Shown here: positions 1 through 632 of the stretch, in pieces
How positions within the stretch are numbered: the stretch's first letter is position 1
How the letters are laid out: each line of letters begins with the position of its first letter
Assembly (NCBI GenBank): GCA_041659065.1
Contig: JBAZYY010000001.1
Coordinates: 1 to 58,846, forward strand
From: Parcubacteria group bacterium
GTDB taxonomy: Bacteria; Patescibacteriota; Minisyncoccia; Moranbacterales; UBA11712
Length of the DNA: 58,846 nt
Direction: 5' to 3'
Notes under the pieces: model-generated
Seen by the model: the letters and a program-made list of their open reading frames with translations, nothing else
Told to the model about the DNA's origin: nothing
The model's database searches: none
Translations under genes and position numbers: made by a program

Positions 1-632
1 ATCGCTTATAGGAGCGTGGAAGATCATCAGATAAAAGTTACCCCGGGGATAACAGGCTGATCCCTCCCAAGAGTCCACATCGACGGAGGGGTTTGGCACC
101 TCGATGTCGGCTCATCGCATCCTGGGGGTGAAGAAGCTCCCAAGGGTTTGGCTGTTCGCCAATTAAAGCGGTACGCGAGCTGGGTTCAAACCGTCGTGAG
201 ACAGGTTGGTCTCTATCTGCTGTAGGCGTCGTTGCTTGAGAGGAGTCTTTCTTAGTACGAGAGGACCGGAAAGAACGAACCTCTGGTGTACCAGTTGATC
301 CTGCCAAGGGCACCGCTGGGTAGCTAAGTTCGGAAGGGATAACCGCTGAAAGCATATAAGCGGGAAGCCCACCTCAAGATTAGGCAACTGCCGTGCGTAG
401 CACGGAATGTCAAAATCGAAAATCCAAATGACAAATCAAGCCTAAAATCCAAATAACGAAAATTTTAAAATTTAGTCATTTGAACTTGATTTGAAATTTG
501 AGCTTTGAAATTTGAAATTCCGCGCTATGCGCGGCGCAACTTCCTGGAAGAATACCAGGTTGATAGGCTCTAGGTGTAAGCCCTGCGAGGGGTTGAGCCA
601 AGGAGTACTAATAAGTTGAAGATTTACCTCTA
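1..632 (+). rRNA. rrl: 23S rRNA, 3' portion (domains V-VI), truncated by window start
   Basis: Universally conserved 23S strings are present: GGATAACAGGCTGAT, GTTTGGCACCTCGATGTCGGCTC, TAGTACGAGAGGACCGG, GCTGAAAGCAT, CAGGTTGATAGG and GTACTAATAAG near the 3' end. Confidence 0.95.
390..535 (+). repeat. 146-nt AT-rich palindromic insertion at the helix-98 position of 23S (intervening sequence or MITE-like element)
   Basis: It interrupts otherwise conserved 23S sequence. The GC-rich ends (390-405 and 520-535) match as inverted repeats at 13/16 positions. GCAACT flanks both ends. The body shares words with the repeat at 8955-9070. Confidence 0.6.

Follow-up and report, generated by a model that had tools for sequence, protein, structure and literature searches.

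A 146-nt palindromic element, probably of the intervening-sequence type, in place of helix 98 in the 23S rRNA gene of a Moranbacterales bacterium

The DNA analyzed here (58,846 nt, positions 1–58,846 of contig JBAZYY010000001.1, assembly GCA_041659065.1; hereafter the window) comes from a Parcubacteria group bacterium of the Moranbacterales and opens within a 23S rRNA gene in which a 146-nt palindromic element (390–535, forward strand) stands in place of the native hairpin of helix 98 (H98). Positions 1–631 of the forward strand are the 3′ part of this gene, cut by the window start, and matched the Rfam model LSU_rRNA_bacteria over model positions 2426–2925 (480.5 bits, E = 1.4e-154). In this alignment, 137 nt were left unaligned in the loop of a small hairpin, cucggu[4]ccgu, which is H98; the hairpin comes after the H94–H97 domain, and the 5S rRNA gene lies downstream at 910–1016. 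The 23S sequence before the element, ...CTCAAGATTAGGCAACT, ends at position 389. An initial annotation, made from the letters of the window alone, had described a 146-nt palindromic interruption at H98 and proposed alignment to a large-subunit (LSU) covariance model as a check; the Rfam alignment fixed the insertion point as the H98 loop and, together with the fold described below, confirmed the interruption.

Region 376–552 folded as a single long hairpin with a minimum free energy of −56.9 kcal/mol, compared with −32.6 ± 3.7 kcal/mol for shuffled sequences (z = −6.5; 0 of 200 shuffles as good). The element within it is an imperfect rod of ~55 base pairs, with a 16-bp GC-rich base below an AT-rich palindrome of 7-nt repeats. 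On inspection of the letters, the left GC-rich end (390–405, forward strand; GCCGTGCGTAGCACGG) and the right GC-rich end (520–535, forward strand; CCGCGCTATGCGCGGC) are inverted repeats of each other, with 13 of 16 positions matching, as annotated. Each can also fold alone into a perfect 6-bp hairpin, CCGTGC-GTA-GCACGG at 391–405 and CCGCGC-TAT-GCGCGG at 520–534, and the family members at H9, H45 and H98 conserve the left end. Between them lies the 114-nt AT-rich palindromic body (406–519, forward strand), made of ~7-nt units that are xCAAAxx-like in the 5′ arm and complementary, xxTTTGx-like, in the 3′ arm, with the apex near 459–466. Lag-7 autocorrelation was 0.56–0.62 in the two arms, against a window background of 0.27 ± 0.07. 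The other strings quoted in the annotation lie where it had placed them (TCGAAAATCCAAATGACAAA at 416–435, GCAACT at 384–389 and 536–541, and one copy of TTTGAGCTTTGA at 9020–9031), except that the first copy of the last string is at 497–508 and had been entered as 498–509, off by one. No group I or group II intron covariance model matched the element, and 146 nt leaves no room for an open reading frame (ORF); a permissive Rfam scan of the element returned only sub-threshold matches to plant miRNA precursors, the kind that any long hairpin gives.

Relatives were collected from genomes and metagenomes by scanning with a lineage-specific 23S word from just upstream of H98, which yielded 91 loci (loci are referred to here by L numbers), most of them labelled Candidatus Moranbacteria (Moraniibacteriota). 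The closest relative, L051 (metagenome contig Ga0182022_1344716), has flanking 23S sequence ~99% identical to that of the window (99.5% in the pairwise comparison of flanks), with two differences from window positions 1–391 (one substitution and one 1-nt indel) and two from 537–631. At the element site, L051 reads GGCAACTG-TCCCGAC-TTG-TCGGGACA-CAACTTCCTGG, an ordinary 19-nt H98 where the window has the 146-nt element. The element is absent there and, as annotated, is a lineage-specific addition at H98. More distant relatives, L083, L089 and L073 among them, have a short H98 of the L051 type, and the short form is therefore ancestral. The stem of the L051 hairpin, GTCCCGAC/GTCGGGAC, is absent from the base of the element, so the native stem was replaced, not split, and the event was no clean insertion. 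Because L051, at ~99% identity, carries the flanking motifs around an ordinary H98, the replacement was recent; sequence comparison indicates that the element was gained after the split from a relative with this degree of identity in the flanking 23S gene.

The two GCAACT copies had been read as a 6-bp duplication around the element. The first corresponds to GGCAAC (383–388, forward strand), the 3′ strand of the stem closing the H94–H97 domain, which pairs with GTTGCT at 231–236 and is common to L051 and to relatives without H98. The second belongs to CAACTT (537–542, forward strand), the 5′ strand of H99, which pairs with AAGTTG at 613–618. In L051, GGCAACT...ACAACTT surrounds the normal short H98. 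Since both copies are strands of conserved rRNA helices that already flank H98 in L051, they are not a target-site duplication, and explanation by a conserved helix was the outcome that the annotation itself had named as contrary to its reading. Removal of 390–541, which it had thought to leave a plausible 23S junction, would take away one side of H99, its 5′ strand; relatives without H98 read GGCAAC-ATAACTT-CCTGG, not GGCAACT-TCCTGG. The core idea, that a member of a repeat family was newly placed in an rRNA gene, holds; the reading as a transposon with a duplication fails on the duplication.

Among the 91 loci, H98 was absent in many, a short hairpin of ~17–30 nt in many others, and occupied by inserts of 100–430 nt in the rest. 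In metagenomes, the left junction together with the GC end (CTCAAGATTAGGCAAYNGYCGTGCRWAGCRCG) had no match, and a broader flank pattern gave 53 loci. Relationships among flanks were taken from pairwise identities; the neighbour-joining tree was noisy, owing to upstream insertions that disturbed the alignment. Turnover is rapid among close relatives: L064, with a long H98, and L082, with a short one, have flanks 98.2% identical, and L025 and L026 carry different long elements between flanks that are 98.9% identical. Independent assemblies of different samples gave identical elements that agree in layout and site (L011 = L076, L048 = L068, L029 = L090, and L007 = L050 = L066).

The survey also contained other variants. 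The 63-nt H98 region of L055 has ends like those of the 152-nt element of L021 (shared by L021, L058 and L074) but is without its repeat body, which consists of ACGCGGAC-type units of ~10–11 nt; L021 and L055 are a second case in which the ends are conserved while the body is there in one and missing in the other. L013, L063 and L084 have no H98, but carry an extra segment of ~55 nt (CCGATGTAAAATCGGACTCCGTACCCCCGATGTTACAATCGGGGCGTCGGA) in the next hairpin, right before GTTGATAGG and ~45–100 nt past the search word. Moranbacteria-type 23S contigs of seven loci (L009, L012, L019, L027, L028, L032 and L037) are filed under Bdellovibrionales or Bathyarchaeia metagenome-assembled genomes, into which they were probably mis-binned.

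The layout of the element, GC hairpin, AT-rich 7-nt-repeat palindrome and GC hairpin, recurred at H98 in L009, L011 (= L076), L044, L047 and L048 (= L068). Body alignments were scored against a null obtained by shuffling 7-nt blocks within each arm, and the window body scored only 17–30, the null level, against the H98 bodies of these five elements. Its best match was instead an insert at L029 4149–4304 (= L090), which scored 72 (null 27.8 ± 5.8; 0 of 2000 shuffles); the two are ~80% identical across 124 nt that take in both GC ends, and one stretch of 34 nt is identical. The two elements align end to end, including T-GCCGT...GCGGC-G, with the L029 ends GCCGTACATAGTACAG and CCGCACTGTGTGCGGC corresponding to the two window ends, and their flanks are unrelated. 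By cmscan, the L029 insert sits in the helix loop at model positions 1205–1226, which is H45, and the H98 of L029 is short. The L029 23S gene (2772–6879) is 4108 nt long, compared with a model of 2925 positions; its insertions total ~1.2 kb, and the H45 element makes up only ~150 nt of this. A vertically inherited expansion segment at H98 was considered and rejected, because bodies at the same site score at the null level and the closest homologue lies in H45 elsewhere; the closest relative, moreover, has a short hairpin.

Further members were found at other helices. H9 of L025 holds an element with the layout and end type of the window element, H25 of L025 one with a related body and other ends, and the helix at model positions 2228–2247 of L011, taken as H79, likewise a related body with other ends; in some species, similar bodies with other end types occur at H45 and H98 too. 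In the matrix of all pairwise scores (median 25), high values joined different helices of different genes (L011 H45 with L012 H25, 73; L011 H45 with L025 H25, 68) and of one gene (L011 H25 with L011 H45, 61), and homologous pairs at the same site were also present. A scan of viral contigs for the conserved right arm gave 0 matches, and in ~0.7 Mb of related loci the GC ends turned up in rRNA genes only.

The window holds one more copy of the subfamily. An AT-rich 7-nt-repeat palindrome without GC ends (8951–9072, no strand assigned) separates an ABC-2 permease gene, with its stop codon at 8950, from a PMT-family gene, with its ATG at 9075, and nhmmer found exactly two copies in the 58.8 kb, this one and that in H98. 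The local alignment score between the two bodies was 48 (null 23.3 ± 4.8), and because 0 of 2000 block shuffles equalled it, the relation goes beyond shared low complexity. The annotated kinship of the body with the intergenic repeat at 8955–9070 is thus borne out, and with it the existence of a second copy of the repeat family; that copy is the body only and lacks the GC ends. In L094, which is the window organism in another sample, the spacer palindrome is unchanged; the organism is present in SRR18595301 and ERZ27249449. In relatives whose permease is 81–84% identical, the orthologous spacers of window 8951–9074 (L095 2281–2343, L098 2281–2357, L100 and L101 2281–2305) are 25–77 nt long and each carries a different 7-nt repeat (TCAAAAA; CAGCGAT with CTGTTCA; ACGCNNA). 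Since orthologous spacers carry differing repeats, 7-nt arrays are general and fast-changing in the non-coding DNA of this lineage, and a unit length of 7 nt seems to be a lineage property, whatever the unit sequence. Two other repeats were noted in the window. The intergenic region 57538–57730, past an ORF ending at 57546, has four to five copies of AAATTCT, a unit also present in the 23S inserts of L009, L025, L047 and L048, and a GC-rich hairpin, CGACTCGC-GAA-GCGAGTCG, with no clean palindrome; a perfect 42-nt tandem repeat of 3.6 copies (100% matches) occupies 22376–22527.

The ends can pair in two ways, and covariation supports both. In an alignment of ten members, the end-to-end rod had 87% of cells paired and double changes in 14 pairs, while the local end hairpins had 89% of cells paired and double changes in 8 pairs, with compensated versions such as CCGTGC/GCACGG, CTGTGC/GCACAG, CCAGTGC/GCACTGG and CCAATGC/GCATTGG. 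The triloops of the two ends were mutually complementary in 29 of 30 cells, for which rod pairing is the sole explanation. A recurrent A-C mismatch in the rod (6 of 10 members) is avoided by the local hairpins. In folding energy, the rod is ahead of the form with three hairpins by 17 kcal/mol for RNA and 5 kcal/mol for single-stranded DNA. The family as a whole folds into long stem-loops. Sense RNA folded better than antisense, through G-U pairs, in 7 of 9 elements by 4–31 kcal/mol, and this bias points to selection on the transcript.

The segment 390–535 is probably an intervening-sequence (IVS)-type 23S element, one of a family moving between helix tips, that has taken the place of the native H98 hairpin. 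The IVS reading, and excision with it, is favored because position, shape, size, the lack of an ORF, sporadic distribution and the occupation of H9, H25 and H45 match bacterial IVSs: the tip of a surface helix is replaced, the replacement is a long, mostly double-stranded stem-loop, and its presence is sporadic with horizontal spread. The element would be transcribed within pre-23S rRNA and folded as a ~55-bp imperfect rod projecting from the ribosome surface. Long AT-rich duplexes are typical RNase III substrates, and a double-strand-specific endonuclease of the RNase III type may cut the rod out without religation; H99–H101 (536–631, ~96 nt) would then persist as a separate 4.5S-like 3′ fragment, base-paired in place. 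Excision with such a fragment is the more plausible fate of the rod, by a modest preference, and retention in mature rRNA is the less likely one, if well within reach. Across the family, elements ended by GC hairpins cap H9, H45 and H98, similar bodies with other ends cap H25 and H79, and body-only copies are intergenic; members are probably exchanged between helices and between genomes. Homologous recombination through conserved rRNA flanks could import copies at the same helix without a duplication; hops between helices would require a process directed at the tips of hairpins. A wider proposal, which we put forward tentatively and regard as possible rather than likely, is that Moranbacteria harbor mobile palindromes of an undescribed class, which would target rRNA helices (H9, H25, H45, H79 and H98) and intergenic hairpins by a duplication-free, hairpin-acting mechanism, consist of 7-nt repeats that arise by a process specific to the lineage, and have fragmented 23S rRNA repeatedly, including into a bacterial 4.5S-like piece.

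Several observations weigh against the IVS reading. A perfect local hairpin is kept at each GC end by compensatory changes, and the rod model needs none. For the window element (−57.6 vs −53.0 kcal/mol) and its L029 homologue (−59.6 vs −50.5 kcal/mol), the antisense strand folds better, which is unlike the result of long selection on an rRNA-sense transcript; as a matter of speculation, the body may recently have been turned around through recombination of the two inverted ends. The element of the window is itself known from one assembly only, and a six-frame scan of the 58.8-kb window for the RNase III signature motif found no gene.

Retention, the possible but less likely fate, would leave the rod in an unfragmented mature 23S rRNA as the bacterial counterpart of expansion segment 39 (ES39). 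The sense-strand folding bias of most members is equally compatible with retention and with processing, and the complementary arms of short tandem repeats recall the "compensatory slippage" that Hancock and Dover reportedly described in 1990 for eukaryotic expansion segments; a hypervariable, quickly turning-over sequence, however, speaks against a structural role, and the suitability of the duplex for RNase III against retention. The element occupies the ES39 site (PMC7594248; PMC10573304) and E. coli ribosomes tolerate insertions at 2787–2803 (PMC2441807), but other members lie at H9, H25 and H45, sites from which bacterial 23S inserts of similar length and form are classically removed by RNase III, with no religation (PMC11270868; PMC7758197). 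Growth in place would instead have lengthened the native H98 hairpin by 7-nt slippage, matched by compensatory slippage in the opposite arm, without any transfer. Both arms are indeed 7-nt periodic, and slippage clearly exists across the lineage, the array in the spacer between the ABC-2 and PMT genes differing in every relative examined. This origin is nevertheless very improbable, given the ~80% identity over 124 nt, with both ends, to an element that another species carries in another helix, the 34-nt identical stretch and the non-periodic features common to both, the loss of the L051 native stem from the element base, and flanks that differ by <1% and allow little time for the stepwise addition of 146 nt.

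A miniature inverted-repeat transposable element (MITE), that is, a non-autonomous DNA transposon with terminal inverted repeats that duplicated GCAACT on entering H98, would account for inverted ends that match at 13 of 16 positions and are conserved from one site to another (H9, H45 and H98), for a related body in an intergenic spacer, and for presence and absence among near-identical 23S genes. It too is very unlikely: both GCAACT copies are conserved helix strands and stand around the short H98 of L051, excision with one repeat copy restores no empty site that was observed, the native hairpin stem is replaced and not split, the intergenic copy has no inverted ends, and 58.8 kb hold only two copies. 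Movement without a duplication would be explained if the end hairpins were recognition sites of an enzyme specific for hairpins in single-stranded DNA (a RAYT or an IS200/IS605 TnpA-like HUH enzyme, in the manner of REPINs and palindrome-associated elements), an unlikely route, although one compatible with the IVS reading. Perfect local hairpins are kept by compensatory double changes in at least six independent members, at the cost of the A-C rod mismatch in 6 of 10, there is no target duplication, and copies sit at several hairpin tips; yet no gene for such an enzyme was seen, though no search for one was made, the GC ends keep to rRNA genes across the ~0.7 Mb of related loci, and the triloop complementarity is explained only by the rod, while a double palindrome gives both pairings automatically. 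An assembly artefact, through a chimeric join or a misassembled repeat in the rRNA gene, is barely credible. rRNA genes are hard to assemble from metagenomes, and the other contigs of the window organism (2.6, 3.5 and 13.2 kb, from two samples, reached through neighbouring proteins) end before the 23S gene; the insert, however, lies exactly at a helix tip between intact flanks, and same-layout elements at the same site are identical across independently assembled samples.

Downstream of the 23S gene, the 5S gene (910–1016) is followed by a 66-nt insert and then by a 33-nt duplicate of the 5S 3′ end (1079–1111 repeats 980–1012). This second copy and the following GCCGACAATATTGTATTTAAA match the 5S end of L051, and the functional 5S copy lies between new sequences that are complementary to each other, GTTTATAGTTCTCGG and CCGAGAACTATAAAC. 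The 5S gene is 90.5% identical to that of L051, vs ~99% for the 23S gene, and the arrangement looks like partial 5S replacement by recombination. The 23S-5S spacer contains a near-consensus promoter at 729–757 (TTGACA, 17 nt, GATAAT) and a 39-codon ORF at 766–885 for a small hydrophobic protein. The ORF is conserved in L051, where 12 codons differ synonymously and 6 non-synonymously, and it appears to be a genuine gene for a small protein, located between those for 23S and 5S rRNA.

Insertions are present in most CPR (candidate phyla radiation) 23S genes, in 82% according to the survey of Tsurumaki et al. 2024 (PMC11270868), and CPR rRNA insertions were also reported by Brown et al. 2015, as cited in that survey (PMC11270868). 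Short (<200 bp), ORF-less, non-intron insertions were left there as "uncharacterized", with IVSs suggested at the known IVS sites 23IS2 and 23IS4 (PMC11270868). The present case shows that many of these insertions, at least in Moranbacteria, belong to one structured family, in which the spread of intervening sequences can be studied concretely. H98 would join the bacterial IVS sites, and the predicted separate H99–H101 fragment would parallel chloroplast 4.5S rRNA. In practice, such genes will be handled wrongly by rRNA-based binning, by primer design and by length filters.

Dispersed palindromes (MITEs, REP, REPIN and BIME sequences, and the Rickettsia palindromic elements) resemble the element as short non-coding palindromes with genic and intergenic copies and hairpin-forming ends. 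They differ from it in that it has no target-site duplication, a low copy number in the window and GC ends restricted to rRNA helix tips, and, unlike for bacterial dispersed palindromes, we know of no partner enzyme for the family. With the eukaryotic and Asgard archaeal ES39, which grows from H98 and is length-variable and repeat-rich (PMC7594248), and with the H98 insertions tolerated in E. coli (PMC2441807), the element shares its site; ES39, however, is retained in mature rRNA, vertically inherited and branched, whereas the window element is a single rod with quick turnover. The same LSU rRNA position is that of the chloroplast 23S/4.5S spacer, which coincides with H98, and of the H98 that Pyrococcus furiosus excises (PMC7758197). 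The spinach spacer is 115 nt long with a base-paired stem, and its removal leaves H99–H101 separate (PMC7758197). Those features are fixed and lineage-wide, whereas the window element is polymorphic between near-identical 23S genes and has no sequence relation to them.

The closest resemblance is to the classical IVSs at H9, H25 and H45 (Salmonella, Yersinia, Proteus, Campylobacter, Leptospira, Rhizobiales and Coxiella). There too, a stem-loop of 100–200 nt stands where a surface helix would have its tip; it lacks an ORF, has a higher AT content than the rRNA, is found in some close relatives but not in others, and bears marks of horizontal transfer. Members of the present family occupy the same three helices. 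Unlike the classical IVSs, the window copy is at H98, homologous copies sit in different helices, the body of 7-nt repeats lies between two GC hairpins, and excision is here an inference. With the insertions of Tsurumaki et al. the element shares the group of organisms and the short, ORF-less, non-intron class, but the repeat-palindrome architecture, the GC ends, the homology between helices, the intergenic relatives and the H98 site are not described there; the 14 frequent CPR 23S insertion sites of that survey, with named positions up to 2657, do not include H98 (PMC11270868). What is new here is the H98 site, the defined architecture and the clear homology between copies at different helices; in other respects, the element is an IVS or CPR rRNA insertion.

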